From the NCBI GenBank assembly GCA_032718475.1, contig JAUCBJ010002467.1, positions 1 to 37,376 of the forward strand: a DNA stretch of 37,376 bases, read 5' to 3'. The notes under the pieces are model-generated. The model was not told where the DNA came from. It was given only the letters and a program-made list of their open reading frames with translations, and did no database searches. A program made the position numbers and the translations under genes. This DNA comes from Nemertoderma westbladi (lineage: Eukaryota > Animalia > Xenacoelomorpha). Positions 5,541 to 34,526 of this stretch are shown in pieces. Within the stretch, counting starts at the first letter, position 1. The number at the start of each line of letters is the position of its first letter.

Positions 5541-5568
5541 TAAGTACAAGGGTGGAGGTTGTTTAGGT

Positions 5569-8133: not shown

Positions 8134-8847
8134 TTATTTTTCTGAGAATTAGATTCAGCTCAGAATTCTGTGCTTCTGTACGGAAGTTTCAGACTTTGGC
8201 CCAGGAACATCTGATGGCCTTGGTTATAAGAACGTAAATCTATTAACTTGTCATTTGACTTACTTAACTGCACATGCATTATGACTTGTAACACATATTG
8301 ACTGTTCAGCGCACTGTTTTACTTCTGTTTCATATTGTATTAATTGTTGTTTATATTAATGGATGTTATATTTGGAGAATACCGATAAATAATCATAAAC
8401 CCCTCAATCTTATTGATTACTGAGGTAAGAGGAAAAGAGTATACCGGTAGCAACTGCGACTTAAATTATAGTGGTTTTGTGTGAATTAAATGCTATTTCA
8501 TAATCCTTACGTGTGTCAGTTGCAATCCTCCTTATATATGATCAAATTCAGTGAGGGTCGGCAATTTAGTGTGAAGTAGTGTGAAGTCGTGTGAAAGTCA
8601 ATAAAGCATCTCCTAAAGAATGCGCTATTTACGAAACTCTGTGGCCATCTAGTTGTGATTATAGTATAAGTCATAACTCTGTTTTTATACTTAAAGCGCC
8701 ACGTCCTAAAGGAACTGTTAATATTTCCCCGAAAGTAAATATACTGTAGTTGTCAGAGATTATATACAGTAGTAGCGATCAATCGAATAATACAGAGTAG
8801 TCTACACCGCAATACTTCCCAGGGAACCCGAATCCAGTCTCCCCTGT

Positions 8848-11737: not shown

Positions 11738-12259
11738 ATGGCAAGTAAGGCGGCAGCTTCGAAACGGGCTGGAGGTAAGAAACGCGTACAACGCGCGACT
11801 AGTAATGTATTCGCTATGTTCGATCAGAATCAAATACAAGAGTTTAAAGAGGCCTTCAACATGATAGACCAAAACCATGACGGGTTTATTAATAAGGATG
11901 ATCTAAGAGATATGTTGTTCTCTTTGGGCAAGGAGCCCGGAGATTCTTATCTGGATGACATGATTAACGAAGCTCCTGGGCCTATCAACTTCACAATGTT
12001 CCTAACCCTATTCGGGGAGCGCCTGCAGGGCACAGACCCTGAAGAAGTCATCAGAAATGCATTCTCTAACTTCGATGACGATCTTACAGGAATTATTCCG
12101 GAGGAGAACTTGCGTGAGTTGCTGATGACTATGGGCGATCGGTTTACGGAAGACGAAGTCGACGAGATGTTCCGAGACGCCCCGATAGATAAACAAGGAG
12201 GATTTAATTACCCGGAATTCACAAAGATCCTTAAACACGGAGTTAAAGAAAAGGAATAG
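11738..12259 (+). CDS. MYL12: Myosin II regulatory light chain (non-muscle/smooth type; MYL12/MYL9/sqh family), intronless CDS, 173 aa
   Basis: [17 protein letters not shown] phosphorylation motif, EF-hand [39 protein letters not shown]-terminal [11 protein letters not shown] intact from ATG to TAG. Confidence 0.97.
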
Positions 12260-15249
12260 ATGGTTTAGTGCCGGCCATATCGGTATAAATAGCAAACCGG
12301 GTTATGTTTTGTTGTTTGGTCTATTTAAATTCCATTGTTTTATATAGCTGTATAGGCTGATAGGGGTTGGCTGTACTGACTCTGTCTGACTGTGTTGGTA
12401 CCACTATGTACCGCGTACCGGTACCGGTATTAGCGGTAACAGCATTGTTCTTGCTTCCATAAGCACGCAAGCTTAGCAGCTTGCTTCAACATTGCTGCAC
12501 GATTATCGTTTAAGTATATAACAATAGGTAATTAAAAGCAAATTAAAATTAATTTGTGCAGCAATGATGAGCTGATTTCTGGGATATTCGAATCTAAAAC
12601 TCATAAATTTGTGAAATATTAATCTTCAGCTAGCTCACTTTCTTTGGGGGATGTCATGTTAGAGGCTCAGTGACAATGTTTATCTGCCAGGCTGCAAGAG
12701 TTGAGGTCTACACCCTAACTGTTATGTGGCCATAAACTGGGACCTAAACGAGAGCCTTATGGGGTTATGCACTGCACCATGGTTACATGACAGTTTCAAT
12801 TATTGTGATGACCCGACCAACTAACCCAAAACAAACACAAATCCAATTTAAATTACAGAACTATATATATATTACAGAATTAAGTATATTATACCGGAAG
12901 TCTTTGTTGTGGTAGATAGACTTTCGAAAGTTCTCTAAATTATTTTAAAACTTTCCCAATTTACTTCGTTTACACATAACATCAAAACCAAGTCGTATTA
13001 ACAAATAGGCGGAAAGTAAGTTCGCTTGCTGAATACTTAATATACTTCAAAATGAGTTTCATATTCGTATCCCACCAATACAACCTATCTCTAGGCCATT
13101 AGTTTATTTTATTTATGTGTAACGCTCTGCTCTCCTATGCTGACAATGCCGCTAAACGCTTACCTTTACTAGTCAAGCTATTAACTCTGTACATCGTACT
13201 GAGTACAAGTGTATATTTTCGACTACTCACCCTAACTAGTTACTCTTTCTACCAGGATTAGTCCATATTATCTCTCCTTTGTGCTGCTCTTTGATGGTAA
13301 CTGTACTGAAATTATTATTGGGAGGAATTAGTTATTTCTTGGGGCGGGTCATTGACTAGTAAATATAATTATGTGTTATATTATTATTATAAATCGATTA
13401 GATCGAATATTATTTTATTCCTGGGTCGATTGAAATACCTTTAACGGTGATTATTTCATTTTTAGCGAGTATTTAATTTGCTTTATTATTGCTTAGTTGT
13501 TAAATGTTTAATTATAATTAACATAATATTCCAGTTATTTTACGATATTATATTATTTTGATATCTGATGTTTAATGAATATTGTATTGGTAATATTTTA
13601 TAATATTTATAGCATGCGTGAAATATTTAGCATAATAATTGAGTTCTAAGTTATTACCCATTTTAAAGTTCGGGGGCCCTCCCGGCACTCACTCATGTAT
13701 GAAACATTCATATACTCGGGTAATTTTCTACGGTCCCACCCAATAAAACTTGAAAGAATAGATTTTCATTACCTGAAAAATTACCCCGTCTCACTTAATT
13801 TTGTAATTAAGTCAGTGGCAGTACGAATCACTGCGCTTTGTTTGACAAAATGTTAGTGGAAGAATCGTTATTTTATAATTCTAAAATATTAAATAATATT
13901 AGGCTGCGTGCGTTTACACCAGTGTTGACGTGTCACAGTTGATAGTTGACGTGTCACTATTATTGTGACCGCCAACTGTGACACATTAAAATGAAATCCG
14001 TAGATAGGACAGGGTGTACATAATGTAAAACTTTATAAGACGGCTAACTTTATACGGCAGGTGAGAATTGTTTTTACGGCGGACGAGAAACCAGCAACGG
14101 CTCTCAGACACAGCCTCATATGATTTGGGACCGTAATCTGGTACACCTGGTACAGGTCAGCCAACACTTACCTTCATTTTACCAGGTTTTGGCGCAAATT
14201 GACCGCAAGTAATTATATTACAATTAGAATCACTGAACCTATTATCTGCGTAGAAACACCATAAAATATACAAAGTTAGAAAAAGTAGAAAAGTAATATT
14301 TATTATTTTTAGAAAGACCAGAGAGTGGAAGATAATATTGCAATTATTTTCACTAAATTCACTATTTAAAATATGAATGGGATTTTGGGTTATCTTCCTC
14401 AGTAGGGCATTCATCGTTGTTTCCCAAATTACCTTGGATACCATATCGACTAGTCACGATTGAACGAACTCCAAATTAAGCGACATAAGCTAATAAGGAT
14501 CACCAACGCACTAACTGTTTGACTCAGAGAAAGTATGAATCATATGTGCGATACTTAAGTGATACGCAGATTCCCAATCTTGTAGAAAGCTAATGTATTT
14601 GAAAATAATTAAATTGGTATAAAATGTTCGGATTACTAAATAACAATTACTAGAATTATTAACTGCTTGATCTATGTAGGTACTAGGTACGGGTCTATTA
14701 TCAGTAGTACAGCCTGGTGCATGGGCTTCTATTTAATAATATTAACGCTTTTTAATACGATATTCTTAAAGTCGTGGTATCCCTCGACATGAGCATTAAG
14801 TAAGCTCATAGTTTTGTTTAAATCCGGCAGTAAAGCATAATTATGTGGTAACTATAGAGGGATAACAATAATAGATAGACTCCTTAAGTCAATTGTATGA
14901 TTCGTTTTTAACCGCTAGGTTCGTTGGTCAGGGTCAGGGTCGCTATTGTCGTGGGACAGGGTCCCGCGAGAATGTTTAAGTATTTGTGCAGTATTGTGTG
15001 TGGTAAGGTATGATCTGTGCACTGCGTATGTCGTACCAATGTACTAAGTCTGTCCTTGGTGGTGGTATTTTTATTTTGTTTCTACCAATGGAGGTAGACA
15101 AGGTGCACCTAGTGTTACTTATTATTTTGCATGTATCTCGATTGTATGGTAAAAATGATTCGTAAAGTTTACAAAACGAATGGGTTCTTTGGTGTATTGC
15201 AATTATTACTCCTCATGGTCGATACTGTTATTTTTTTTTTTTTTTTTAC

Positions 15250-15445
15250 CGGGATAGGTTTAGATAGACCCGTAGAAAGCAAAAGGTATACTGTAGACAT
15301 TGAAATTTATAAAGTGAGGACAGGTTCATAAGTTTCAATTGTTTAAATAAGATATGTGTATGATGGTCATACGGTTTCAAGAGGATTATGCGGCGGATTA
15401 TTTTTTTCTGTAATTTTATTAGCGGAAGAAGGTAGGTAGGAGTAT
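15250..15445 (-). mobile_element. CR1/L2-group LINE ORF2 C-terminal fragment
   Basis: PTYLLPLIKLQKKIIRRII..PYDHHTHILFKQLKLMNL resembles the post-RT region of CR1/L2-group elements. Confidence 0.6.
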
Positions 15446-15497
15446 GGGATTCGCCGCGGATAATCATTTAACAAACCGGGAAACAGCTAATTAATAT

Positions 15498-15755
15498 AAC
15501 AAGCGCGAAATCGCGCAAATGTCCGCGTCTACTAACGCATGAACTGTCTCCTTGAATGGCTTACTAACAATCTTACAACAGCAAAAAATTCACCGGAATG
15601 GGGGCATTGAACTCGGTACCTAGAGATTCCAAGACCCACGCTCTGCCAAATGAGCCACTGGGGCTGCATCAATCATTAATACCAAAACCTAACGAGAAAT
15701 TAACAACAACAACAACCGGGTGAATACTAGAGGTATCGCTACGCGAACCTATAAA
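15498..15755 (-). mobile_element. Second HINE-like family member with a single 52-bp-type unit and an internal tRNA-derived segment
   Basis: Same termini as 3566-4495 (GCGCGAAATCGCGC hairpin; AGGTATCGCTACGCGAACCT), one copy of GTCCGCGTCTACTAAC..GAACTGTCTCCTTGAATGGCTTACTA, and an (AAC)n microsatellite. Confidence 0.7.
15595..15665 (-). pseudogene. tRNA-derived sequence (SINE head or tRNA pseudogene)
   Basis: Minus strand GCCCCAGTGGCTCATTTGGCAGAGCG...GAGTTCAATGCCCC has A-box-like and B-box-like motifs at tRNA spacing, with a D-stem GCTC/GAGC. Confidence 0.55.
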
Positions 15756-15779
15756 CATAAGAGCATTGATTGATTTTTG

Positions 15780-16315
15780 TTCAGTTTCCGTTATGATTAT
15801 AAATTCCGAAAATACACAATTTTTTGTAGTAAATGGTTTAGATACGGATCAAGACAGTTTATTTTCGGTGATACAATTGTCGCACATTGTAATAGTTATA
15901 CTTATCTTGGACCCCCTACACTGAAAATGGTAAGATGTCTGACGTAATTAAACTACAAATAAACAAATGTGAAGTAGCGACAATAAATTTAAGTATTTTT
16001 TGGGCCAATAATACAACTATGCCGTTTGTTATTAAACGTCAAGTATTTGAAGCTTGTCTTCTGAGTAGCGTACTATATGCCTCAGAAATGTGGTTGGTTC
16101 GTGATTTTAAGAGAATTGAATCTACTACCATAAAATGAAAATGATTAAATGTCTCCTGGGTCTCACGGGTACAGACCCCTACAAACAGGTTTGAGGCAGG
16201 TTTTACACCCCTGGAGGACAGAATACTAAATTCTCGTAGAAATTTCGTTAGGATAATGTTGTCGAGACCTGACCCAGAAATACCATTTTTCCAGGCTGTT
16301 GATATTGTTAAGGCC
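15780..16315 (+). mobile_element. Degenerate non-LTR retrotransposon fragment (RT C-terminal region)
   Basis: CNSYTYLG motif near 15888, then VFEACLLSSVLYASEMW and IKCLLG, with stops and frameshifts. Confidence 0.7.
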
Positions 16316-16334
16316 CGTGCTCCACTGGCAACAC

Positions 16335-17570
16335 ATGGGTTGTAAAGGCTTTTGCGGAATTAGCTAGTCATTTTCCCCGCAAAGTACTCTGTAGGTGTTT
16401 TAGCGGACATAAAAAGCCGTTTCCTTACTGTACCGGTGTTTTAGTGGACATAAAAAGCCATTTCTTCTGTATGTGTACTTTAGCGGACATAACTAGCGAT
16501 TTTATGTCGCAATACGCCAAAATACTCTTGATACAGTGTAAGTTCAGATGACGACATCTATCAGCTGATATGTCCACGTGTAACTTTTTCTTTGTTCTTT
16601 GTTCGGTCGACCAATCAGAGCGATTTTCATTTTATTTGTACAGAAACCTCCGGGAAATCGCGCAATGCATTATGGTTTATGTTTACCTTTTTTCCTAAGC
16701 CTAGAACATCGGCTATGGAATTATTCTGTGTTTCAGACTTTAGCCAAACATTAGAACGGCTTTGATTATAGAAACGTATAACTGTTATCATATTGTCACA
16801 AACTGCATACAGCCCATATCATACCATACATACCTTTCACCGCATTATTTTACTGCTATTTACTGTCGGTTATTAATTGTATCAGTTGATGGAATATTGT
16901 TATATTTGGAGAATATCGATAAATAATCATAAAACCCCCAATCTTCTTGATATACTGAAGGTGAGAGACCGGTTACATATAGCAATTGCGACTTACATTA
17001 TAGTGGTTTTGGAGTGAATCTAATGCTATTTCATAGGCCCTACATGTATCGGTTGCTGTTCTCTTTATATGTGACTAAAATTAGTGAAGGTCGGCAGATC
17101 GGTGTGCAGCATTGTGCGGTAGTGTGCATGAATGTGATAGATAACAAAGCATCTCCTAAAGAATGCGCTTTATACGTGAATCAATAGCCATCCTGTTGTG
17201 TTTAGTGTAAGTCATAACTCTGTTTACATACTTAGAGCGCCACGTCCTAAAGGAACTGTTGATATTTCCCGAAAGTGAATAATATTTGTCAGAGATTATA
17301 TATTAACGATCAATCGAATAATACAGTAGGCCTACACCGCAATAAGGTCAGAGCTTCCGAATCCAGTCTCCCGGGTAAATCCAGCGGGTGAATGGTCGCG
17401 CATAGGCTGGCTTCGGCTAATGTAGTGCATCAAATACTTGTCATAGGCTAAAGTCGATTTATAACCTAGAAGACACCTAAATTTGGCAGGTTAAACTGCT
17501 AAAGGTCTAAAAGCGCGAACATGGGTCTTATGTCAAAAGTCGTTTTCAGATTTTGTCTGAGTCCGTATGT
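16335..17570. mobile_element. Unclassified non-coding interspersed element, copy 2 (without the nested insertions of copy 1)
   Basis: Collinear with the copy 1 segments. The left end has reiterated TTTAGCGGACATAA motifs and the right end has TATGTCAAAAG motifs, possibly degenerate TIRs. Confidence 0.7.
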
Positions 17571-17757
17571 CAAAAGTATAGGAAGGGATCTTGGGGTCTT
17601 AGCCTCGAATGATAAGTTTATTTTACCGAAAATAACTTATCTTTTATTGGCGCAATTGTAGGACTAATCCTATCACATGCTTTTTTTTTAACCGGGTAGT
17701 GTACAAATTTAGGAATCGCGTAATTTTTCTTGAAATTAATATCTCATATCTCTCCAA

Positions 17758-17800
17758 ACCACGTACGCGTTTCGACCTTACTGGGTCTCATCAGCGTGGT
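17758..17800 (-). ncRNA. Minimal type I hammerhead ribozyme (copy 1)
   Basis: ACCACG-CTGATGA-GACC-CAGTAA-GGTC-GAAA-C-GC-GTA-CGTGGT on the minus strand. The conserved core is complete, stems I and II are perfect, and stem III is the palindrome ACGCGT. Confidence 0.9.
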
Positions 17801-17860
17801 GTCGGATTCGAACCTGGGACCTCGAGGTGGAAGCCGAGACTACAACCACTAGGCCACAGG
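17798..17860 (-). promoter_or_regulatory. tRNA-like Pol III internal promoter (A and B boxes) fused to the hammerhead
   Basis: A box TGGCCTAGTGG (17846-17856), anticodon-arm-like CTCGGCTTCCACCTCGAG, B box GGTTCGAATCC (17804-17814). The acceptor stem does not form, so this is not a functional tRNA. Confidence 0.75.
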
Positions 17861-18014
17861 TTCTTGAGATATGGAGTATTAATTTCAAAGCCAGCTGCCA
17901 TTTTATTAGCCCCTGATTTTTCGATTATTGGTAGTAACAATGTGTTGGCAAGCTGTATTTATCGAGGTGTTTGTTATTATAAATTTACTTCGAGGTTCTA
18001 GGTTCGAATCCGAC

Positions 18015-18057
18015 ACCACGCTGATGAGACCCAGTAAGGTCGAAACGCGTACGTGGT
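18015..18057 (+). ncRNA. Minimal type I hammerhead ribozyme (copy 2)
   Basis: ACCACG 18015-20, CTGATGA 18021-27, stem II GACC/GGTC, GAAA 18042-45, GTA cleavage triplet 18049-51, CGTGGT 18052-57. Preceded by a B box at 18001-18011. Confidence 0.9.
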
Positions 18058-18484
18058 TTGGAGAGATATGAGATATTAATTTCAAGAAAAATTACGCGAT
18101 TCCTAAATTTGTACACTACCCGGTTAAAAAGTACGCATGTGATGGGATTAGTCCTACAATTGCGCCAATAAAAGATAAGTTATTTTCGGTAAAATAAACT
18201 TATCATTCGAGGCTAAGACCCCTAGATCCCTTCCTATAATAAATGTATAATAACAAACACCTCGAAAAATACAGCTTGCCAACACATTGTTACTATCAAT
18301 ATTTTCAAAAGTATAGCTTCCACTGACTGGTAAGTCATAAATCTTTATTAAATAATATAAGATGCATCTCACATTCAATGGAACACTTGAACATTTAATG
18401 GCTTTGCTGCTATCCAAAGTAACCAATCACAGACCTCTTGGCAGAAAGAACGGTGACAAGTTGCCTCATTCCATGAGTCAGGCG

Positions 18485-18608
18485 GCTATTGTACATTGTT
18501 TTATATTATACAGGTAGAGAGAGTTAGACGGTTATTGTACATTGTTTTATATTATACAGCGAGAGAGAGTGAGTTAGGCTGTTATTGTACATTGTTATAT
18601 ATTATACA
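18485..18608 (-). repeat. Three ~47-50-bp tandem copies of the U4 3' flank
   Basis: ATTGTACATTGTT(T/A)TATATTATACAG at about 18487, 18534 and 18584. A related duplication lies at 5707/5753 after U4 copy 1. Confidence 0.85.
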
Positions 18609-18749
18609 GGTACCCCGAGGGCCCCACACAAATTGCTCCTGGTTCCACCGAAGTTTCCCCAGGGCGGGTTATTGGGAATAGTTTTCAATTAGCAATAATC
18701 GCGCCTCGGTTAAACCTCATCGGCTACGATACTGCCTCTGCGCAAAGAT
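18609..18749 (-). ncRNA. U4: U4 spliceosomal snRNA (identical to copy 1)
   Basis: Exact reverse complement of 5569-5709, with a conserved upstream PSE-like region at about 18780-18815. Confidence 0.96.
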
Positions 18750-19076
18750 ACCTAAACAACCTCCACCCATCTACTTCAATCAAGTAGTTTAACATTAATT
18801 GGGTATCATTAAAATAAAATAAATATATGGATACATATTTTACTTATCCGGTACTAATTGTAAAAACATAAGACAACATTTATATATTATAATTTTCATA
18901 AACAATTAATTTAAAATTATTGATAAATAAAAACGTTTTAAATGTTAATAATGTTTGAATAACTTTCTATAATTTATTACCTGATCGTCTCTTAGCGATA
19001 TTTAAAAGAAGGATTGCCTCCCCAAAGTACATTACTTTACACGCCACCTAGCGTCTAATATCGTGAACTAACTAAC

Positions 19077-19248
19077 CCCAGCGCTATCAAATATCCTTTT
19101 CGTTCCGCTCTTGTTGCTATAGAGATGAGCCAGTTCTGGGTCTGGGCTAAGGTACGGAAGATCTAGGAGATCAGATATCTCCATGTCGTCTATGTGGAGG
19201 TTGCCAGGAACTATGTAGGCATCCTTACCAGATACTATGTTCTTTATT
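19077..19248 (-). CDS. IQCH: IQCH exon (7th visible): [21 protein letters not shown]...[18 protein letters not shown]
   Basis: TTTAG| acceptor and |GTTAGT donor. Phase matches the preceding exon (CG+A). Peptide resembles IQCH as recalled ([12 protein letters not shown]). Confidence 0.88.
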
Positions 19249-19434
19249 CTAAACATAACAAAACGTCGGTCAAACAATAAACTTGATTACTATCCCATTA
19301 CGAGTTTTACATCGGAAACGGTTTCCAACACTTAATCTACACAAACTCTACATATATTCATATCCTTTCCCCAAACTCCCATTGCCGATATTGAAAACTT
19401 GCTCGTCTATAGGTACCAACAAAGTCTATAGGCA

Positions 19435-21805
19435 CCAAACTTATCGCTTGAGGGCTCGATCAATGTACTTGAGCACAGTGCTTAAACCAAACTTACCGCT
19501 TGAGTGCTCGATCAATGTACTTGAGCACAGTGCTTAAACCATACTTACCGCTTGAGTGCTCGATCAATGTACTGGAGCACAGTGCTTAAACCAAACTTAC
19601 CGCTTGAGTGCTCGATCAATGTACTGGAGCACAGTGCTTAAACCAAACTTACCGCTTGAGTGCTCGATCAATGTACTGGAGCACAGTGCTTAAACCAAAC
19701 TTACAGTTTGAGTGCTCGATCAATGTACTGGAGCACAGTGCTTAAACCAAACTTACCGCTTGAGTGCTCGATCAATGTACTGGAGCACAGTGCTTAAACC
19801 AAACTTACAGTTTGAGTGCTCGATCAATGTACTTGAGCACAGTGCTTAAACCAAACTTACCGCTTGAGTGCTCGATCAATGTACTTGAGCACAGTGCTTA
19901 AACCATACTTACCGCTTGAGTGCTCGATCAATGTACTGGAGCACAGTGCTTAAACCAAACTTACCGCTTGAGTGCTCGATCAATGTACTGGAGCACAGTG
20001 CTTAAACCAAACTTACCGCTTGAGTGCTCGATCAATGTACTGGAGCACAGTGCTTAAACCAAACTTACCGCTTGAGTGCTCGATCAATGTACTGGAGCAC
20101 AGTGCTTAAACCAAACGTACAGTTTGAGTGCTCGATCAATGTACTGGAGCACAGTGCTTAAACCAAACTTACCGCTTGAGTGCTCGATCAATGTACTTGA
20201 GCACAGTGCTTAAACCAAACTTACCGCTTGAGTGCTCGATCAATGTACTGGAGCACAGTGCTTAAACCAAACTTACCGCTTGAGTGCTCGATCAATGTAC
20301 TGGAGCACAGTGCTTAAACCAAACTTACCGTTTGAGTGCTCGATCAATGTACTGGAGCACAGTGCTTAAACCAAACTTACCGCTTGAGTGCTCGATCAAT
20401 GTACTGGAGCACAGTGCTTAAACCAAACTTACCGCTTGAGTGCTCGATCAATGTACTGGAGCACAGTGCTTAAACCAAACTTACCGCTTGAGTGCTCGAT
20501 CAATGTACTGGAGCACAGTGCTTAAACCAAACTTACCGCTTGAGTGCTCGATCAATGTACTGGAGCACAGTGCTTAAACCAAACTTACCGCTTGAGTGCT
20601 CGATCAATGTACTGGAGCACAGTGCTTAAACCAAACTTACCGCTTGAGTGCTCGATCAATGTACTGGAGCACAGTGCTTAAACCAAACTTACCGCTTGAG
20701 TGCTCGATCAATGTACTGGAGCACAGTGCTTAAACCAAACTTACCGCTTGAGTGCTCGATCAATGTACTGGAGCACAGTGCTTAAACCAAACTTACCGCT
20801 TGAGTGCTCGATCAATGTACTGGAGCACAGTGCTTAAACCAAACTTACCGCTTGAGTGCTCGATCAATGTACTGGAGCACAGTGCTTAAACCAAACTTAC
20901 CGCTTGAGTGCTCGATCAATGTACTTGAGCACAGTGCTTAAACCAAACTTACCGCTTGAGTGCTCGATCAATGTACTGGAGCACAGTGCTTAAACCAAAC
21001 TTACCGCTTGAGTGCTCGATCAATGTACTGGAGCACAGTGCTTAAACCAAACTTACCGCTTGAGTGCTCGATCAATGTACTGGAGCACAGTGCTTAAACC
21101 AAACTTACCGCTTGAGTGCTCGATCAATGTACTGGAGCACAGTGCTTAAACCAAACTTACCGCTTGAGTGCTCGATCAATGTACTGGAGCACAGTGCTTA
21201 AACCAAACTTACCGCTTGAGTGCTCGATCAATGTACTGGAGCACAGTGCTTAAACCAAACTTACCGCTTGAGTGCTCGATCAATGTACTGGAGCACAGTG
21301 CTTAAACCAAACTTACCGCTTGAGTGCTCGATCAATGTACTGGAGCACAGTGCTTAAACCAAACTTACCGCTTGAGTGCTCGATCAATGTACTGGAGCAC
21401 AGTGCTTAAACCAAACTTACCGCTTGAGTGCTCGATCAATGTACTGGAGCACAGTGCTTAAACCAAACTTACCGCTTGAGTGCTCGATCAATGTACTGGA
21501 GCACAGTGCTTAAACCAAACTTACAGTTTGAGTGCTCGATCAATGTACTGGAGCACAGTGCTTAAACCAAACTTACAGCTTGAGTGCTCGATCAATGTAC
21601 TGGAGCACAGTGCTTAAACCAAACTTACCGCTTGAGTGCTCGATCAATGTACTGGAGCACAGTGCTTAAACCAAACTTACCGCTTGAGTGCTCGATCAAT
21701 GTACTGGAGCACAGTGCTTAAACCAAACTTACCGCTTGAGTGCTCGATCAATGTACTGGAGCACAGTGCTTAAACCAAACTTACCGCTTGAGTGCTCGAG
21801 GGCTG
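19435..21805 (-). repeat. 52-bp tandem array x45 built from the IQCH exon 3' end plus splice donor
   Basis: Minus-strand unit GTAAGTTTGGTTTAAGCACTGTGCTCCAGTACATTGATCGAGCACTCAAGCG. CCAAAC from 19435 to 21775 spans exactly 45 x 52. Confidence 0.97.
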
Positions 21806-22016
21806 TACTTGAGCACAGTACTCAAGCACATCTTATGATCAGGAAAACGTTTGATCGCATCAGGTACTATAACGGTAAACCGAGAGTCCACGGGACTCTG
21901 GTCATCAGCGTTGCCTGTAGCAACAGCGTTACGTAGGCCCAGAAGACGACTGTAATATTGTTCCATATCCTCTGTGATTGGCACCGGTGAGATGTAAACT
22001 ACATCAACATTGGGAT
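21785..22016 (-). CDS. IQCH: IQCH exon (6th visible): DPNVDVVYISP...HKMCLSTVLKYSPRALKR
   Basis: TTTTAG| acceptor and |GTAAGT donor, phase 1 in and phase 2 out. Resembles IQCH NVIYI..HMCLAT.LMYSPKAIKR. Confidence 0.9.
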
Positions 22017-22040
22017 CTAAAACAGGAAGTAATATTGTAA

Positions 22041-25000
22041 AATTCAATCTGCTGCACCTGTGACCCAGGGTTATTCTGATTGGTTCAGTGTATAATTCAG
22101 TCTGGTGCACCAGTGACCCAGGGTTATTCTGATTGATTCAGTGTATAATTCAGTCTTATGCACCTGTGACCCAGGGTTATTCTGATTGATTCAGTGTATA
22201 ATTCAGTCTTATGCACCTGTGACCCAGGGTTATTCTGATTGGTTCAGTGTATAATTCAGTCTTATGCACCTGTGACCCAGGGTTATTCTGATTGGTTCAG
22301 TGTATAATTCAGTCTGGTGCACCAGTGACCCAGGGTTATTCTGATTGGTTCAGTGTATAATTCAGTCTTATGCACCTGTGACCCAGGGTTATTCTGATTG
22401 GTTCAGTGTATAATTCAGTCTTATGCACCTGTGACCCAGTGTTATTCTGATTGGTTCAGTGTATAATTCAGTCTTATGCACCTGTGACCCAGGGTTATTC
22501 TGATTGGTTCAGTGTATAATTCAGTCTTATGCACCTGTGACCCAGTGTTATTCTGATTGGTTCAGTGTATAATTCAGTCTTATGCACCTGTGACCCAGGG
22601 TTATTCTGATTGGTTCAGTGTATAATTCAGTCTTATGCACCTGTGACCCAGGGTTATTCTGATTGGTTCAGTGTATAATTCAGTCTTATGCACCTGTGAC
22701 CCAGGGTTATTCTGATTGGTTCAGTGTATAATTCAGTCTTATGCACCTGTGACCCAGTGTTATTCTGATTGGTTCAGTGTATAATTCAGTCTTATGCACC
22801 TGTGACCCAGGGTTATTCTGATTGGTTCAGTGTATAATTCAGTCTTATGCACCTGTGACCCAGGGTTATTCTGATTGGTTCAGTGTATAATTCAGTCTTA
22901 TGCACCTGTGACCCAGTGTTATTCTGATTGGTTCAGTGTATAATTCAGTCTTATGCACCTGTGACCCAGGGTTATTCTGATTGGTTCAGTGTATAATTCA
23001 GTCTTATGCACCTGTGACCCAGGGTTATTCTGATTGGTTCAGTGTATAATTCAGTCTTATGCACCTGTGACCCAGGGTTATTCTGATTGGTTCAGTGTAT
23101 AATTCAGTCTTATGCACCTGTGACCCAGGGTTATTCTGATTGGTTCAGTGTATAATTCAGTCTTATGCACCTGTGACCCAGGGTTATTCTGATTGGTTCA
23201 GTGTATAATTCAGTCTTATGCACCTGTGACCCAGGGTTATTCTGATTGGTTCAGTGTATAATTCAGTCTGGTGCACCTGTGACCCAGGGTTATTCTGATT
23301 GGTTCAGTGTATAATTCAGTCTTATGCACCTGTGACCCAGGGTTATTCTGATTGGTTCAGTGTATAATTCAGTCTTATGCACCTGTGACCCAGGGTTATT
23401 CTGATTGGTTCAGTGTATAATTCAGTCTTATGCACCTGTGACCCAGGGTTATTCTGATTGGTTCAGTGTATAATTCAGTCTTATGCACCTGTGACCCAGG
23501 GTTATTCTGATTGGTTCAGTGTATAATTCAGTCTTATGCACCTGTGACCCAGGGTTATTCTGATTGGTTCAGTGTATAATTCAGTCTTATGCACCTGTGA
23601 CCCAGGGTTATTCTGATTGGTTCAGTGTATAATTCAGTCTGGTGCACCTGTGACCCAGGGTTATTCTGATTGGTTCAGTGTATAATTCAGTCTTATGCAC
23701 CTGTGACCCAGGGTTATTCTGATTGGTTCAGTGTATAATTCAGTCTGGTGCACCTGTGACCCAGGGTTATTCTGATTGGTTCAGTGTATAATTCAGTCTT
23801 ATGCACCTGTGACCCAGGGTTATTCTGATTGGTTCAGTGTATAATTCAGTCTTATGCACCTGTGACCCAGGGTTATTCTGATTGGTTCAGTGTATAATTC
23901 AGTCTTATGCACCTGTGACCCAGGGTTATTCTGATTGGTTCAGTGTATAATTCAGTCTTATGCACCTGTGACCCAGGGTTATTCTGATTGGTTCAGTGTA
24001 TAATTCAGTCTGGTGCACCTGTGACCCAGGGTTATTCTGATTGATTCAGTGTATAATTCAGTCTTATGCACCTGTGACCCAGGGTTATTCTGATTGGTTC
24101 AGTGTATAATTCAGTCTTATGCACCTGTGACCCAGGGTTATTCTGATTGGTTCAGTGTATAATTCAGTCTGGTGCACCTGTGACCCAGGGTTATTCTGAT
24201 TGGTTCAGTGTATAATTCAGTCTTATGCACCTGTGACCCAGGGTTATTCTGATTGGTTCAGTGTATAATTCAGTCTTATGCACCTGTGACCCAGGGTTAT
24301 TCTGATTGGTTCAGTGTATAATTCAGTCTTATGCACCTGTGACCCAGGGTTATTCTGATTGGTTCAGTGTATAATTCAGTCTTATGCACCTGTGACCCAG
24401 GGTTATTCTGATTGGTTCAGTGTATAATTCAGTCTGGTGCACCTGTGACCCAGGGTTATTCTGATTGATTCAGTGTATAATTCAGTCTTATGCACCTGTG
24501 ACCCAGGGTTATTCTGATTGGTTCAGTGTATAATTCAGTCTGGTGCACCTGTGACCCAGGGTTATTCTGATTGGTTCAGTGTATAATTCAGTCTTATGCA
24601 CCTGTGACCCAGGGTTATTCTGATTGGTTCAGTGTATAATTCAGTCTTATGCACCTGTGACCCAGGGTTATTCTGATTGATTCAGTGTATAATTCAGTCT
24701 TATGCACCTGTGACCCAGGGTTATTCTGATTGGTTCAGTGTATAATTCAGTCTTATGCACCTGTGACCCAGGGTTATTCTGATTGGTTCAGTGTATAATT
24801 CAGTCTGGTGCACCTGTGACCCAGGGTTATTCTGATTGGTTCAGTGTATAATTCAGTCTGGTGCACCTGTGACCCAGGGTTATTCTGATTGATTCAGTGT
24901 ATAATTCAGTCTTATGCACCTGTGACCCAGGGTTATTCTGATTGGTTCAGTGTATAATTCAGTCTTATGCACCTGTGACCCAGGGTTATTCTGATTGGTT

Positions 25001-28000
25001 CAGTGTATAATTCAGTCTTATGCACCTGTGACCCAGGGTTATTCTGATTGGTTCAGTGTATAATTCAGTCTGGTGCACCTGTGACCCAGGGTTATTCTGA
25101 TTGGTTCAGTGTATAATTCAGTCTGGTGCACCTGTGACCCAGGGTTATTCTGATTGGTTCAGTGTATAATTCAGTCTGGTGCACCTGTGACCCAGGGTTA
25201 TTCTGATTGGTTCAGTGTATAATTCAGTCTTATGCACCTGTGACCCAGGGTTATTCTGATTGGTTCAGTGTATAATTCAGTCTTATGCACCTGTGACCCA
25301 GGGTTATTCTGATTGGTTCAGTGTATAATTCAGTCTGGTGCACCTGTGACCCAGGGTTATTCTGATTGGTTCAGTGTATAATTCAGTCTTATGCACCTGT
25401 GACCCAGGGTTATTCTGATTGGTTCAGTGTATAATTCAGTCTTATGCACCTGTGACCCAGGGTTATTCTGATTGGTTCAGTGTATAATTCAGTCTGGTGC
25501 ACCTGTGACCCAGGGTTATTCTGATTGGTTCAGTGTATAATTCAGTCTGGTGCACCTGTGACCCAGGGTTATTCTGATTGGTTCAGTGTATAATTCAGTC
25601 TTATGCACCTGTGACCCAGGGTTATTCTGATTGGTTCAGTGTATAATTCAGTCTGGTGCACCTGTGACCCAGGGTTATTCTGATTGATTCAGTGTATAAT
25701 TCAGTCTTATGCACCTGTGACCCAGGGTTATTCTGATTGGTTCAGTGTATAATTCAGTCTTATGCACCTGTGACCCAGGGTTATTCTGATTGGTTCAGTG
25801 TATAATTCAGTCTGGTGCACCTGTGACCCAGGGTTATTCTGATTGATTCAGTGTATAATTCAGTCTTATGCACCTGTGACCCAGGGTTATTCTGATTGGT
25901 TCAGTGTATAATTCAGTCTTATGCACCTGTGACCCAGGGTTATTCTGATTGGTTCAGTGTATAATTCAGTCTTATGCACCTGTGACCCAGGGTTATTCTG
26001 ATTGGTTCAGTGTATAATTCAGTCTTATGCACCTGTGACCCAGGGTTATTCTGATTGGTTCAGTGTATAATTCAGTCTTATGCACCTGTGACCCAGGGTT
26101 ATTCTGATTGGTTCAGTGTATAATTCAGTCTTATGCACCTGTGACCCAGGGTTATTCTGATTGGTTCAGTGTATAATTCAGTCTTATGCACCTGTGACCC
26201 AGGGTTATTCTGATTGGTTCAGTGTATAATTCAGTCTTATGCACCTGTGACCCAGGGTTATTCTGATTGGTTCAGTGTATAATTCAGTCTTATGCACCTG
26301 TGACCCAGGGTTATTCTGATTGGTTCAGTGTATAATTCAGTCTTATGCACCTGTGACCCAGGGTTATTCTGATTGGTTCAGTGTATAATTCAGTCTTATG
26401 CACCTGTGACCCAGGGTTATTCTGATTGGTTCAGTGTATAATTCAGTCTTATGCACCTGTGACCCAGGGTTATTCTGATTGGTTCAGTGTATAATTCAGT
26501 CTTATGCACCTGTGACCCAGGGTTATTCTGATTGATTCAGTGTATAATTCAGTCTTATGCACCTGTGACCCAGGGTTATTCTGATTGGTTCAGTGTATAA
26601 TTCAGTCTTATGCACCTGTGACCCAGGGTTATTCTGATTGGTTCAGTGTATAATTCAGTCTTATGCACCTGTGACCCAGGGTTATTCTGATTGGTTCAGT
26701 GTATAATTCAGTCTTATGCACCTGTGACCCAGGGTTATTCTGATTGGTTCAGTGTATAATTCAGTCTGGTGCACCTGTGACCCAGGGTTATTCTGATTGA
26801 TTCAGTGTATAATTCAGTCTTATGCACCTGTGACCCAGGGTTATTCTGATTGGTTCAGTGTATAATTCAGTCTTATGCACCTGTGACCCAGGGTTATTCT
26901 GATTGATTCAGTGTATAATTCAGTCTTATGCACCTGTGACCCAGGGTTATTCTGATTGGTTCAGTGTATAATTCAGTCTTATGCACCTGTGACCCAGGGT
27001 TATTCTGATTGGTTCAGTGTATAATTCAGTCTTATGCACCTGTGACCCAGGGTTATTCTGATTGGTTCAGTGTATAATTCAGTCTTATGCACCTGTGACC
27101 CAGGGTTATTCTGATTGGTTCAGTGTATAATTCAGTCTTATGCACCTGTGACCCAGGGTTATTCTGATTGGTTCAGTGTATAATTCAGTCTTATGCACCT
27201 GTGACCCAGGGTTATTCTGATTGGTTCAGTGTATAATTCAGTCTTATGCACCTGTGACCCAGGGTTATTCTGATTGGTTCAGTGTATAATTCAGTCTTAT
27301 GCACCTGTGACCCAGGGTTATTCTGATTGGTTCAGTGTATAATTCAGTCTTATGCACCTGTGACCCAGGGTTATTCTGATTGGTTCAGTGTATAATTCAG
27401 TCTTATGCACCTGTGACCCAGGGTTATTCTGATTGGTTCAGTGTATAATTCAGTCTTATGCACCTGTGACCCAGGGTTATTCTGATTGGTTCAGTGTATA
27501 ATTCAGTCTTATGCACCTGTGACCCAGGGTTATTCTGATTGGTTCAGTGTATAATTCAGTCTGGTGCACCTGTGACCCAGGGTTATTCTGATTGGTTCAG
27601 TGTATAATTCAGTCTGGTGCACCTGTGACCCAGGGTTATTCTGATTGATTCAGTGTATAATTCAGTCTTATGCACCTGTGACCCAGGGTTATTCTGATTG
27701 GTTCAGTGTATAATTCAGTCTTATGCACCTGTGACCCAGGGTTATTCTGATTGGTTCAGTGTATAATTCAGTCTTATGCACCTGTGACCCAGGGTTATTC
27801 TGATTGGTTCAGTGTATAATTCAGTCTTATGCACCTGTGACCCAGGGTTATTCTGATTGGTTCAGTGTATAATTCAGTCTGGTGCACCTGTGACCCAGGG
27901 TTATTCTGATTGGTTCAGTGTATAATTCAGTCTTATGCACCTGTGACCCAGGGTTATTCTGATTGGTTCAGTGTATAATTCAGTCTGGTGCACCTGTGAC

Positions 28001-31000
28001 CCAGGGTTATTCTGATTGGTTCAGTGTATAATTCAGTCTGGTGCACCTGTGACCCAGGGTTATTCTGATTGGTTCAGTGTATAATTCAGTCTTATGCACC
28101 TGTGACCCAGGGTTATTCTGATTGGTTCAGTGTATAATTCAGTCTTATGCACCTGTGACCCAGGGTTATTCTGATTGGTTCAGTGTATAATTCAGTCTTA
28201 TGCACCTGTGACCCAGGGTTATTCTGATTGGTTCAGTGTATAATTCAGTCTTATGCACCTGTGACCCAGGGTTATTCTGATTGGTTCAGTGTATAATTCA
28301 GTCTTATGCACCTGTGACCCAGGGTTATTCTGATTGGTTCAGTGTATAATTCAGTCTTATGCACCTGTGACCCAGGGTTATTCTGATTGGTTCAGTGTAT
28401 AATTCAGTCTTATGCACCTGTGACCCAGGGTTATTCTGATTGATTCAGTGTATAATTCAGTCTTATGCACCTGTGACCCAGGGTTATTCTGATTGGTTCA
28501 GTGTATAATTCAGTCTTATGCACCTGTGACCCAGGGTTATTCTGATTGGTTCAGTGTATAATTCAGTCTTATGCACCTGTGACCCAGGGTTATTCTGATT
28601 GGTTCAGTGTATAATTCAGTCTTATGCACCTGTGACCCAGGGTTATTCTGATTGGTTCAGTGTATAATTCAGTCTTATGCACCTGTGACCCAGGGTTATT
28701 CTGATTGGTTCAGTGTATAATTCAGTCTTATGCACCTGTGACCCAGGGTTATTCTGATTGGTTCAGTGTATAATTCAGTCTTATGCACCTGTGACCCAGG
28801 GTTATTCTGATTGGTTCAGTGTATAATTCAGTCTTATGCACCTGTGACCCAGGGTTATTCTGATTGGTTCAGTGTATAATTCAGTCTGGTGCACCTGTGA
28901 CCCAGGGTTATTCTGATTGGTTCAGTGTATAATTCAGTCTTATGCACCTGTGACCCAGGGTTATTCTGATTGGTTCAGTGTATAATTCAGTCTTATGCAC
29001 CTGTGACCCAGGGTTATTCTGATTGGTTCAGTGTATAATTCAGTCTTATGCACCTGTGACCCAGGGTTATTCAGATTGGTTCAGTGTATAATTCAGTCTG
29101 GTGCACCAGTGACCCAGGGTTATTCTGATTGGTTCAGTGTATAATTCAGTCTGGTGCACCTGTGACCCAGGGTTATTCAGATTGGTTCAGTGTATAATTC
29201 AGTCTGGTGCACCTGTGACCCAGGGTTATTCTGATTGGTTCAGTGTATAATTCAGTCTTATGCACCTGTGACCCAGGGTTATTCAGATTGGTTCAGTGTA
29301 TAATTCAGTCTGGTGCACCAGTGACCCAGGGTTATTCTGATTGGTTCAGTGTATAATTCAGTCTGGTGCACCTGTGACCCAGGGTTATTCTGATTGGTTC
29401 AGTGTATAATTCAGTCTTATGCACCTGTGACCCAGTGTTATTCTGATTGGTTCAGTGTATAATTCAGTCTTATGCACCTGTGACCCAGGGTTATTCTGAT
29501 TGGTTCAGTGTATAATTCAGTCTTATGCACCTGTGACCCAGGGTTATTCTGATTGGTTCAGTGTATAATTCAGTCTTATGCACCTGTGACCCAGGGTTAT
29601 TCTGATTGGTTCAGTGTATAATTCAGTCTTATGCACCTGTGACCCAGGGTTATTCTGATTGGTTCAGTGTATAATTCAGTCTTATGCACCTGTGACCCAG
29701 GGTTATTCTGATTGGTTCAGTGTATAATTCAGTCTTATGCACCTGTGACCCAGGGTTATTCTGATTGATTCAGTGTATAATTCAGTCTTATGCACCTGTG
29801 ACCCAGGGTTATTCTGATTGGTTCAGTGTATAATTCAGTCTTATGCACCTGTGACCCAGGGTTATTCTGATTGGTTCAGTGTATAATTCAGTCTTATGCA
29901 CCTGTGACCCAGGGTTATTCTGATTGGTTCAGTGTATAATTCAGTCTTATGCACCTGTGACCCAGGGTTATTTTGATTGGTTCAGTATATAATTCAGTCT
30001 TATGCACCTGTGACCCAGGGTTATTCTGATTGGTTCAGTGTATAATTCAGTCTTATGCACCTGTGACCCAGGGTTATTCTGATTGATTCAGTGTATAATT
30101 CAGTCTTATGCACCTGTGACCCAGGGTTATTCTGATTGGTTCAGTGTATAATTCAGTCTTATGAACCTGTGACCCAGGGTTATTTTGATTGGTTCAGTGT
30201 ATAATTCAGTCTGGTGCACCTGTGACCCAGGGTTATTCTGATTGATTCAGTGTATAATTCAGTCTTATGCACCTGTGACCCAGGGTTATTCTGATTGGTT
30301 CAGTGTATAATTCAGTCTTATGCACCTGTGACCCAGGGTTATTCTGATTGGTTCAGTGTATAATTCAGTCTTATGCACCTGTGACCCAGGGTTATTCTGA
30401 TTGGTTCAGTGTATAATTCAGTCTTATGCACCTGTGACCCAGGGTTATTCTGATTGGTTCAGTGTATAATTCAGTCTTATGCACCTGTGACCCAGGGTTA
30501 TTCTGATTGGTTCAGTGTATAATTCAGTCTTATGAACCTGTGACCCAGGGTTATTTTGATTGGTTCAGTGTATAATTCAGTCTGGTGCACCTGTGACCCA
30601 GGGTTATTCTGATTGGTTCAGTGTATAATTCAGTCTTATGCACCTGTGACCCAGGATTATTCTGATTGGTTCAGTGTATAATTCAGTCTTATGCACCTGT
30701 GACCCAGGGTTATTCTGATTGGTTCAGTGTATAATTCAGTCTTATGCACCTGTGACCCAGGGTTATTCTGATTGGTTCAGTGTATAATTCAGTCTTATGA
30801 ACCTGTGACCCAGGGTTATTTTGATTGGTTCAGTGTATAATTCAGTCTGGTGCACCTGTGACCCAGGGTTATTCTGATTGGTTCAGTGTATAATTCAGTC
30901 TTATGCACCTGTGACCCAGGATTATTCTGATTGGTTCAGTGTATAATTCAGTCTTATGCACCTGTGACCCAGGGTTATTCTGATTGGTTCAGTGTATAAT

Positions 31001-31015
31001 TCAGTCTGCTGCACC
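22041..31015. repeat. 53-bp satellite, ~169 copies (~9 kb), intronic
   Basis: Unit GCACCTGTGACCCAGGGTTATTCTGATTGGTTCAGTGTATAATTCAGTCTTAT with a few recurrent variants (TTAT/TGGT, TTGG/TTGA). No spacers. Confidence 0.99.
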
Positions 31016-31185
31016 TTACCGTAAATGTCACAAACACTCACCGTAAATGTCACAAACACTCACCGTAAATGTCACAAACACTCACCGTAAATGTCACAAA
31101 CACTCACCGTAAATGTCACAAACACTCACCGTAAATGTCACAAACACTCACCGTAAATGTCACAAACACTCACCGTAAATGTCAC
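31015..31185 (-). repeat. 22-bp tandem array x8 built from the IQCH exon 3' end plus splice donor
   Basis: CCGTAAATGTCAC at 31019, 31041 and onward to 31173. Minus-strand unit TTTGTGACATTTACG|GTGAGTG. Confidence 0.96.
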
Positions 31186-31324
31186 ACAGACGTCCCATTT
31201 GTCGGTTCTGGAGGGCTGGCAGATTGGTCAGACTTTGTCGAATATGCTGAGAATATCCCCGGGATGGGATGTGAATCACTGTCCTTCTCGAATTCTTGAT
31301 TCTATTCCATTGAGATTTTAGTAA
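31174..31324 (-). CDS. IQCH: IQCH exon (5th visible): LLKSQWNRIKNSRRTVIHIPSRGYSQ...QMGRLCDIY
   Basis: TTTGCAG| acceptor and |GTGAGT donor. Motif RRTxIHIPSxGYSQ..GRLCDI is characteristic of IQCH. Not in the supplied ORF track. Confidence 0.9.
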
Positions 31325-31479
31325 CTGCAAATATAAGTTATTACCAAAGTAGGATTCAATAAATTAATTGTTGAATCCAATCCTAATCAAACAGTTATTA
31401 TTTATCGAACGATTATCGACGAACTTATTGAAGCGTGTTTGCCTACATGTCTCCTATTCACATTGTATAAGAGACTAAC

Positions 31480-31612
31480 GTTAGATCTCAGCATAAAGTT
31501 GTCCTTCTGTAAACGTCGAGTTTCGCTGAGTTGTTTTCTTATTCTCGATAATTTGGCGCTCATGATCCAAGATATCGCGATCATACCAGCGGCCCATTTC
31601 TGCTTCCGATAC
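31480..31612 (-). CDS. IQCH: IQCH exon (4th visible): YRKQKWAAGMIAISW...DNFMLRSN
   Basis: GCGTAG| acceptor and |GTTAGT donor, phases consistent with neighbouring exons. Confidence 0.88.
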
Positions 31613-31689
31613 CTACGCAGATAGAATAATATTTAAACTACTTATTACATTTTGTAACATTAAGTATGTCTTTATTTCACGCAACGTAC

Positions 31690-32280
31690 CTAACTGATCT
31701 AGACTTTGCTGACGACTTAGGGGACTGTCAGAATCACTAGAGGGAGACAAAAGGCTCCTCTGTTTCTATTAATGTAAAATTAAATTAATTAAACTCATTG
31801 GAGCAGGTTGCTTCTAGTGTTGGTCTTTTTGTAAACTCCAACAAGACTAAAATCATGATAGTGAACCTAGACAGCCCTCTATAAATGTCTGATCGTAAGG
31901 GCATAAGCTCTAGGGACGGCTTGCTTGAGCACATGGATGACTTCTGCTACTTGGGATTTGGATCATGGATCCGAAAGTCAGGTGAGGACCTTCGAATACA
32001 TAAGGGAAAGGCACGGGCAGCCTTGAATAGGCTTTCCAGGATTTGGAAGTCACCGAGAATTAATCGGAAACTTAAGGTCCGGTTATTTAGAGCAGCAGTA
32101 GTTCCAGTACTCCTCTATGGGAGTCCATGCTGGGCTCTAACTGCTGGGGACACCAAATCTCTGGATGGCACATTCACAAGAATGCTACGCCGGGTTCATT
32201 GTGTCAAGTACAATGCACACATCTCCAACCAGACACTATATAACATTGGATGTGTTTCATTGGTTCCCCAAGCTTGACAC
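31690..32280 (+). mobile_element. Degenerate RTE-clade LINE fragment (intronic)
   Basis: DLDFADDL near 31696, VNSNKTK, DDFCYLG, LFRAAVVPVLLYG..W, DGTFTRMLR. Confidence 0.85.
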
Positions 32281-32609
32281 GAGCGAGGGACGTGAGAGGT
32301 TTATTTTGTCATAAGATATAAACTTAACGTTGTTCTGAACGTTTACTGTATGACGTTAACAGTTCAATGTTTATGAATAATATTTTATGAAACTAATAGT
32401 CAGTTACTACAACAGTACTAATAAGTTCATACAGTAGTTAGAAGGAAATTGATATTTCAGGGTGCTATGAGTTCCCGATGATATAATTGCTGAAATCAAC
32501 TCCCTCATGATGGATTCCACAACATTTGTTTCTAGGAAAGGTGGAAATTCATTAAAGGCGCCATGGGGTGATGCTCCTCAGCACAGCACAAGCTTGCTCT
32601 CAATTATTG

Positions 32610-32862
32610 CGTACTGCCGGCCGACCTAATGTGCGGTCCGTCTTTCTGTCCGGTCGTGCTTACTGTCCGGGCGGGTCTACTATCAGGCCGGGCCTACTGT
32701 CCGGCTGGGCCTACTGTCCGGCCGGGCCTACTGTCCGGCCCGGTCTTCTGGCGTCCGGCTGCTACAGTACTGTCCGGCTGTCCTATTCTCCGACCGGCCT
32801 GTAGTACCTACTGTCGGGTTCTCCCTGTCCTACTGTTTAGGTCAGCCTACTGTCCGGCCGGA
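32610..32862. repeat. Degenerate ~17-bp GC-rich minisatellite (GCCTACTGTCCGGCCGG) adjoining an IQCH donor site
   Basis: Repeated CTACTGTCCGG motifs ending about 10 bp from the donor at 32873. Confidence 0.8.
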
Positions 32863-32873
32863 AACTGACTCAC

Positions 32874-33025
32874 CTTAGGTAGGCACTCCTCTCTTTATGA
32901 CACTTCCACGTTGCCTGTATCTTAGTAGCAGCCCGAATTTCCCGACCATCTCCCTCAAATTGCTGCCCGGATTTTGAAATAATTGGTAACACATCGTTGA
33001 GATTAGCAATACAGCTCAAAAGATC
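32874..33025 (-). CDS. IQCH: IQCH exon (3rd visible) containing the IQ motif: DLLSCIANL...AATKIQATWKCHKERSAYLR
   Basis: TTTACAG| acceptor and |GTGAGT donor. IQ motif KIQATWK. Not in the supplied ORF track. Confidence 0.9.
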
Positions 33026-33139
33026 CTGTAAATATTGACACAGTATCAAACTTAATCATTCAGTACACAAATTACAATTGATGAAAATTGAAAAATCAAT
33101 AGACAAAAATAAGAAATGCGTGTGTATACAGTAGGCCTA

Positions 33140-33605
33140 CGTGGAGTATGTAAGGGAAACGCATGAGGGAAAGGGATGGGCAGCATTTAATGGGGCAGTC
33201 AGACAGAATAGGGCCTGCAACAGAAACTTTAAGGTTGAATTATTTAGGGCAGCAGTAGTTCCAGTACTCCTCTATGGGATACAATGCTGGCCTCTAATTG
33301 CTGAGGACACCAAATCTCTGGATGGCACATTCGCATGAATGCTACGTCGTGATCACGGTGTAAAGTACATAGGCCGACAATGATCAGGGGCCTACATCTC
33401 CAAGCAGACACTGTATAACATTGGAGGTGTCTCATTGGTTCCCCCAAGCTTGACACTAGAACAAAGCCGCCACCGATTTGCAGGACATTGTTTTCGTCGT
33501 GAGGACCAGCATGTGACAATCTTGTGCTTTGGCGACCTCATGGAGTGAATAAGCATGGTGTGCAGCTCATGACTTTCGTGAGACGCCTTTTAAAGAAACT
33601 GGCTT
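33140..33605 (+). mobile_element. Second degenerate copy of the same RTE fragment family
   Basis: 33240-33455 is highly similar to 32085-32280 (gcagcagtagttccagtactcctctatggga; acaccaaatctctggatggcacattc). Confidence 0.82.
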
Positions 33606-33865
33606 AATTAATGAACGCCACATACTGTATAATTATAATATATAAATTATTTAGATAGATTGAATAAGACTATACAACACGAAGTGGGGACTTCGCGCAG
33701 CACTATACAACAGTATTATATTAATTTATATTACTTACAGGGAAATTACTATACCTAATTCTATACCTAAATCTAAAATTGAAAGTAATTCGCCATTAAA
33801 CTACAACAAACTGTAGCTGAAATTCATGACTCTTTAGGTTGCCTTTTAAGCCACTCTTCACTTAC

Positions 33866-34117
33866 CTGTGTAGTTGGAAGTTGATCCAATTCAAACCGGG
33901 ACGCTATATCTGCCAGACGTTCACCGATTATGTAGGCCACCGGTACCGTGTACCGTGCCAGTAGAGCTGCTAGCTGACTCAACACTGAGCTAATGCTGCC
34001 CCACTGCAGGCAGTAGAGCTGTTTGAATGCATGGAACTGGGGGTTGGGGTCCACTATCAGGCCATTGTGTAAAGGGAAACAGGCTAATCCGGTGCCGCGG
34101 TCACGTGATGGTGGCGG
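33866..34117 (-). CDS. IQCH: IQCH exon (2nd visible): PPPSRD...FHAFKQLYCLQWGSI...RFELDQLPTTQ
   Basis: TTCCAG| acceptor and |GTAAGT donor, 252 bp in phase 0/0. Resembles IQCH FLAFK..LAWG.I..YAIP. Confidence 0.85.
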
Positions 34118-34526
34118 CTGGAATAAATTTAGAAACTACAGGTAGAAAAGTAAACGAAACTGCCTATACTTTAACAACAAAAAACCCAATCTTAATCTGG
34201 GCTCGAACCCAGTTCTTTCATATCCTAAATCTGCCACTTAACGAGTGACCATCTATACCAAAGATATAATATCACCACTACAACAAAAATTACATTCTTT
34301 CTGAGGGTCCCTCTTTTCTACTACTACAACTACCTACCTCTCATAATCAACTTTGTATATAAAAAAATAACAAATAAATAAAATTTAAAAAATACCAGTG
34401 GACCATGACCATGTTCATGACCATAACAATAACCAATACACATTATAACTTATGGCTAGTGCTTCCTAACTGTATTTCTAACTGCGGCATTATTTCCGCG
34501 TGTCTCAAGAACTATGTCATTCTAAC

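Follow-up and report, generated by a model that had tools for sequence, protein, structure and literature searches.

A 22-bp minisatellite across the donor site of an IQCH exon in Nemertoderma westbladi, and its relation to known splice-junction repeats

The donor site of one IQCH exon (exon d) in Nemertoderma westbladi is spanned by a 22-bp minisatellite carrying eight donor positions, and the assembled transcript that covers this exon ends it at the most upstream one. We consider it likely that the array belongs to the splice-junction minisatellites known from lancelets, as "mirage", and from human F7, that ordinary slippage or unequal crossover produced it, and that it is tolerated through the use of the first donor. 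The window, meaning the whole stretch of DNA that was analysed, comprises 37,376 nt of contig JAUCBJ010002467.1 (assembly GCA_032718475.1), and 36% of it lies in arrays.

IQCH exons and the arrays in their introns

Of 22 candidate proteins, the exon e query (22014-21787) matched two, both resembling IQCH, one from a bivalve (61% identity) and one from a ribbon worm (56%). With these IQCH-like proteins, six consecutive minus-strand exons, named a to f, were located by tblastn; X4 designates a public sequencing run, which is described further below.

33866..34117, minus strand: exon a, 252 nt (tblastn, X4 contig); array at neither end
32874..33025, minus strand: exon b, 152 nt, with an IQ motif (Pfam) and its donor at 32873 (tblastn, X4 contig)
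31480..31612, minus strand: exon c, 133 nt (tblastn); fits the X4 contig gap 1656-1788; array at neither end
31174..31324, minus strand: exon d, 151 nt, donor at 31173 (tblastn, X4 contig, phases)
21785..22016, minus strand: exon e, 232 nt (protein search, tblastn and model, that is, sequence comparison only)
19077..19248, minus strand: exon f, 172 nt (tblastn); weak Pfam match, below the cut-off, to the start of the IQCH ATP-grasp domain

When the first donor is taken in each array, joining exons a to f at GT-AG ends gives 364 codons without a stop, and the six-exon reading frame is open only with donor 1 of exon d. The sequence GTTAGT is found at 2 of the 6 IQCH donors. At the exon f donor (19066-19076, minus strand), a 4-bp stutter (GTTAGTTAGTT) places GT at two or three sites spaced by 4 nt. 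No additional IQCH exons were detected by tblastn at E < 1 in 1-19000 or above 34120. An intronless open reading frame for a myosin regulatory light chain with EF-hands (11738-12259, plus strand, 173 aa) lies downstream of exon f on the strand opposite to IQCH and may sit inside a long intron of IQCH; the light chain has at most 78% identity among the best 120 of 770 hits.

Four arrays lie within the span of these exons.

31018..31186, minus strand: 22-bp minisatellite across the exon d donor (TRF and unit alignment)
22036..31014, minus strand: 53-bp intronic satellite, 169 full units and a partial one, from 5 nt after the last donor copy of the 22-bp array to 19 nt before the acceptor
19434..21825, minus strand: 52-bp minisatellite across the exon e donor, with 46 donor positions (TRF, unit comparison)
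32608..32861, minus strand: degenerate 17-bp intronic repeat (TRF), from some 12 nt downstream of the exon b donor, which it excludes

The 22-bp array was reported by TRF with a period of 22, 7.7 copies and 100% matches over 31018-31186, and its seven full units are all identical. Every unit combines 9 nt of intron with the last 13 nt of exon d (13/13 identity to the exon end). On the minus strand, the G of the GT falls at 31173, 31151, 31129, 31107, 31085, 31063, 31041 and 31019, that is, at eight donor positions with an exact 22-bp spacing. The eight copies proposed in the initial annotation are thus confirmed by TRF and by the donor positions. As for the composition of the unit, described there as the exon end plus GTGAGTG, the total of 22 bp is right, but the intronic part is 9 nt (GTGAGTGTT) and not 7 nt, because 13 and 7 add up to 20 instead of 22. 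Donors 1-7 read TACG/GTGAGT (the slash marks the splice boundary) and donor 8 reads TACG/GTAAGG; all eight match the donor consensus at 6 of 9 positions, with no difference among them. The last copy, with its GTAAGG, does lead into the 53-bp satellite, as had been stated, and the latter begins 5 nt beyond the GT. The tail after this last copy (GTAAGGTGC) agrees with the intronic 9 nt of the unit at 4 of 9 positions.

Past donor 1, the frame reads GGT GAG TGT TTG TGA, in agreement with the read-through given earlier, and a stop is encountered as the fifth codon. The same TGA is included by all seven later donors, whatever the frame. A coding role of the 22-bp repeat was therefore rejected, since every later donor leads to a stop after four codons. 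The units of the array are minisatellite-sized and arranged head-to-tail, and the splice signal is reiterated in the intronic copies (seven further GT donors). The inner 22-bp units are homogenised and the last tail is divergent; the 52-bp and 53-bp arrays likewise have distinct terminal units.

The 52-bp unit consists of 11 nt of intron and 41 nt derived from the exon, 34 of which are identical to exon e. Its last donor has decayed to ATAAGT, and several internal donors have decayed too; the array is unrelated to the 22-bp array and looks older. The observation that consecutive exons carry unrelated arrays which duplicate the donor is thus correct for exon d (22 bp) and exon e (52 bp). The donor at 32873, which was also said to abut a minisatellite, is real, being spliced in the X4 contig, but the repeat begins about 12 nt into the intron and leaves the donor out.

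Tandem repeats make up 99.8% of intron d-e and 93% of intron e-f. If one unit per array is kept, these introns measure about 99 and 196 bp, respectively, and the repeat-free intron c-d measures 155 bp. Elsewhere in the window, the 22-, 52-, 53- and 17-bp units gave only chance matches of 10-11 nt, and a transposon origin of the four units was rejected because the window holds no other copies.

Several further features of the arrays were recorded. The 53-bp unit contains CAG/GTGCA, a proto-splice-like sequence, at 162 places and without a pyrimidine tract; one variant (GTGCAGCAGA) is common to both terminal units of this array and absent from the inner ones, and variants recur in higher-order blocks. 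A recursive-splicing chain, based on an AG/GT ratchet, was also considered and rejected: the 22-bp and 52-bp units have ACG/GT and GCG/GT, respectively, neither with AG, and the 53-bp unit lacks both a pyrimidine tract before its CAG/GTGCA and GTRAG. Finally, a hairpin-driven origin was rejected because the folding of the three array stretches did not exceed that of shuffled sequences (z = -0.03 for the 22-bp, +0.32 for the 52-bp and -0.60 for the 53-bp array). Two of the six stretches folded, both at junctions, did fold somewhat better than their shuffles, namely the exon e end (z = -1.72) and the exon b donor with the 17-bp repeat (z = -2.49).

Placement of the arrays relative to donors

The initial annotation took the two donor-spanning arrays to suggest a mechanism rather than chance. 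For a null expectation, seven arrays were used out of 22 TRF rows (period of at least 15, at least 5 copies), 15 short, few-copy or overlapping rows being excluded. Each array was reduced to a single unit, which was then set at all permitted positions except those lying entirely within an exon. The four arrays outside dispersed repeats all lie within the exon a-f span. The other three long arrays are located away from any exon found, those at 3586 and 7307 in or between dispersed repeats and that at 8851 on a LINE 3' end.

Arrays span 2 of the 6 donors and none of the 6 acceptors (sign test, P = 0.25). With placement across the whole window, the expectation is 0.07 donor-spanning arrays, and the probability of two or more is 0.002 (7 arrays, post hoc), or 0.0003 for the four arrays outside dispersed repeats. 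When the same four arrays are confined to the exon a-f span, the expectation rises to 0.26-0.50 and P (two or more) to 0.02-0.07; the values vary with the removal or retention of LINE pieces and with the treatment of acceptor-spanning units as purged or not. It should be mentioned that all these P values are post hoc, the window having been chosen for looking odd. The claim of a mechanism therefore stands as far as an excess over uniform placement is concerned (P ~0.002), but not as donor-specificity (P = 0.02-0.07 within the gene; 2 versus 0, P = 0.25). The short introns explain part of the donor pattern, which is suggestive, and a donor-directed mechanism is not established.

Nevertheless, 5' splice sites might seed tandem duplications above chance, for instance through polymerase pausing or R-loops in co-transcriptional splicing. 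The unrelated units on two consecutive donors, the repeat 12 nt away from a third donor, the lack of any spanned acceptor and the whole-window P of 0.002 would all fit such a bias. Against it stand the small, post hoc counts and the P values obtained when the gene is taken as given; in addition, lancelet mirages are described at 5' and 3' boundaries alike (PMC3087553), and survival alone, in which the first donor wins, predicts donor-spanning arrays with no need of a mutational bias. We regard this origin as unlikely. Slightly less likely still is its fuller form, in which a transcription- or splicing-coupled mutational bias at the 5' splice sites of this lineage is joined to a turnover of donors by the arrays. 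The limit of the 53-bp array coincides with +5 of the last copy (GTAAG), which would fit this having been the working donor when the array spread, later replaced by a newer GTGAGT upstream. No genome-wide test of donor bias corrected for intron length was found in the literature searched, which consisted mostly of papers outside the subscription journals.

The remaining repeats of the window were noted separately. The array at 8851-9237 (minus strand) has a 66-bp unit in about 6 copies, made up of the 3'-terminal part of a LINE-like reverse transcriptase open reading frame plus its short TAG tail, and one reading frame is open throughout. The array at 3586-4455 has a 52-bp unit in 16.7 copies; on the minus strand this unit carries GTGAGT, and one copy of it is found within a dispersed repeat at 15495-15570. 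A hidden IQCH exon beside the latter array was rejected, as tblastn gave no match and the unit is that of the dispersed repeat. Fragments of one very high-copy LINE-like family, 81-87% alike and in the same orientation, are found in adjacent IQCH introns (31686-32283 and 33140-33600). Inverted repeats of 252 bp (17577-17828 and 17987-18238; 97% identical, 158 bp apart), accompanied by further inverted pieces, look like a foldback or MITE-type element.

Donor choice in public sequencing runs

Seven public runs were listed, none of them recorded as RNA, and four (X3-X6) were compared over 31120-34200. Run X4 carries the label "DNA?", but its pattern is that of spliced RNA: bins of repeat-free intron are without depth, and the depth of the first bin is 26.1, compared with 25.8 expected from exon-only cover. 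One X4 contig of 3002 nt (record 9) covers exons a, b and d in order, with the pieces 34121-33865, 33024-32872 and 31324-31174 corresponding to record positions 1248-1504, 1505-1657 and 1789-1939. The exon model predicts exactly 1789-1939 for exon d. The gap before this piece fits the 133 nt of exon c, whose own piece is absent from the matches listed.

The exon d piece stops at 31174, where the exon ends immediately ahead of donor 1; the contig itself has 1063 nt more, which lie elsewhere. By the model offsets it extends about 660 nt past exon f, yet tblastn located no further IQCH exon in the 19 kb that follow exon f (1-19076); the missing IQCH exons may lie beyond a long intron or may have escaped the search for lack of sensitivity. 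No X4 contigs cross the array end of the 31120-34200 stretch. The main transcript is thus seen to use the most upstream donor of exon d, in one assembled contig from one run, contigs being a form of data in which rare forms are lost.

These data bear on the possibility that the array acts as a regulatory decoy, the number of spare donors tuning IQCH output by diverting transcripts to a premature stop and decay. One in-frame TGA is shared by all later donors, the eight donors do not differ in their 6/9 consensus match, and extra donors are reported to be used in CBS and 6-16 (PMC1557585). On the other hand, the sole assembled transcript seen uses donor 1, no X4 contig lies over the array end, and selection need not be invoked for a stop codon when the unit length is not divisible by three. 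Moreover, the tail donor and several internal donors of the 52-bp array have decayed, and the identical later donors of F7 are described as silent (PMC1557585). A decoy role consequently appears very improbable.

The least credible explanation is an assembly artefact, in which the perfect repeat would have been made or inflated by the assembler: seven units are indeed 100% identical, but the unique contig of DNA run X3 is interrupted at 31157, within the first 22-bp unit, and the surplus depth at the array edge corresponds to 5.5-8 single copies, with 6-7 expected for eight donors. This depth argues against an artefact as evidence from reads, not from a second animal, given that X3 is possibly the window's own source.

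Runs X5 and X6, which carry other organism labels, matched only LINE fragments over 31120-34200, and nothing in them bears on the age of the array. Both runs yielded near-identical contigs, of 855 and 870 nt, that match the LINE-like family of the IQCH introns.

Origin of the array and comparison with known splice-junction minisatellites

A splice-junction minisatellite tolerated through first-donor use remains the explanation that we favour. It is supported by the 13/13 identity of unit and exon end, by the frame that is open with donor 1, by the end of the contig piece at 31174, by the minisatellite-prone region, by the ordinary folding of the array units and by the like arrangement described in F7, LMNB2, PDGF and lancelet mirages. 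The somewhat better folding of the two junction stretches speaks against it. Against it can be set the low whole-window P, with the P for the exon a-f span at or near 0.05. Minor use of later donors would also be compatible with the contigs, which drop rare variants, and the 4/9 tail match is not explained by a single recent duplication without later change. As for this tail, either it was overwritten by the 53-bp repeat, or GTAAGG is an old donor and the array was refreshed from its exon-side edge, in which case the working donor has been replaced.

We suggest that a short segment across the exon d junction was duplicated and that slippage or unequal crossover subsequently multiplied the copies and made them uniform. 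Before the arrays grew, the introns would have been short (about 99 and 196 bp), and a duplication of 20-50 bp would often have touched a splice site. Duplications within exons would presumably be purged, and those spanning a donor would place the extra copies in the intron with the coding sequence intact. So long as splicing starts from the first donor, the copies stay in the intron and would leave the coding sequence as it was. If a later donor were occasionally used, a premature stop and probably nonsense-mediated decay would result.

The human counterpart is the 37-bp VNTR of F7 intron 7 (Borensztajn et al. 2006, PMC1557585), for which the choice of the first donor was shown experimentally. 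The same source lists donor-spanning minisatellites in CBS intron 13, LMNB2, PDGF intron 4 and 6-16, and describes first-donor use for F7, LMNB2 and PDGF and the use of two further donors in human CBS and 6-16. As in the F7 array described there, the first IQCH unit lies across the exon-intron boundary, identical donors follow one another into the intron (5-9 in F7, 8 in IQCH), and the most upstream donor is the only one seen to be used. The IQCH unit differs from that of F7 in being shorter (22 bp) and in its larger exonic share (13 nt versus 4 nt). Further differences from the F7 description are the second donor array on the next IQCH exon and the intron that consists of tandem repeats to 99.8%.

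The original paper on the lancelet Adh3 mirage is reportedly that of Canestro et al. 2002. Lancelet mirages are described for Adh3, the globins BflGb6 and BflGb9, troponin C and PGBD5 (PMC3087553, PMC3902484); according to these sources, they leave splicing undisturbed at both 5' and 3' boundaries, and their edge units escape homogenisation. The IQCH array resembles them, as they are described, in its boundary-spanning repeats, in a unit size within the 10-72 bp of Adh3, in its homogenised inner units and differing edge units, and in normal splicing being unaffected, for IQCH in one assembled contig. It differs in belonging to another animal and in that only donors are spanned (2/6).

In human segmental duplications, internal tandem repeats were reported at exon-intron boundaries (De Grassi and Ciccarelli 2009, PMC2812944). 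These share with the IQCH array the position and the approximately 30-bp scale of the minisatellites; the human cases presented there create new introns or alternative transcripts, whereas none was seen in IQCH. More generally, repeats adjacent to splice sites are stated to be common in humans and at times to shift splicing (PMC2812944, PMC13196383, PMC10078293).

The IQCH array is thus a clean example of a repeat type that has already been described. It adds transcript support, from one contig, for first-donor choice outside mammals and lancelets, among eight near-equal donors, and in the adjoining intron about 100 bp have grown to 9.2 kb through minisatellites alone. If a genome-wide donor bias proved true after correction for intron length, splicing would be tied to germline mutation, which would bear on the origin of mirages, a matter called unclear in PMC3087553.
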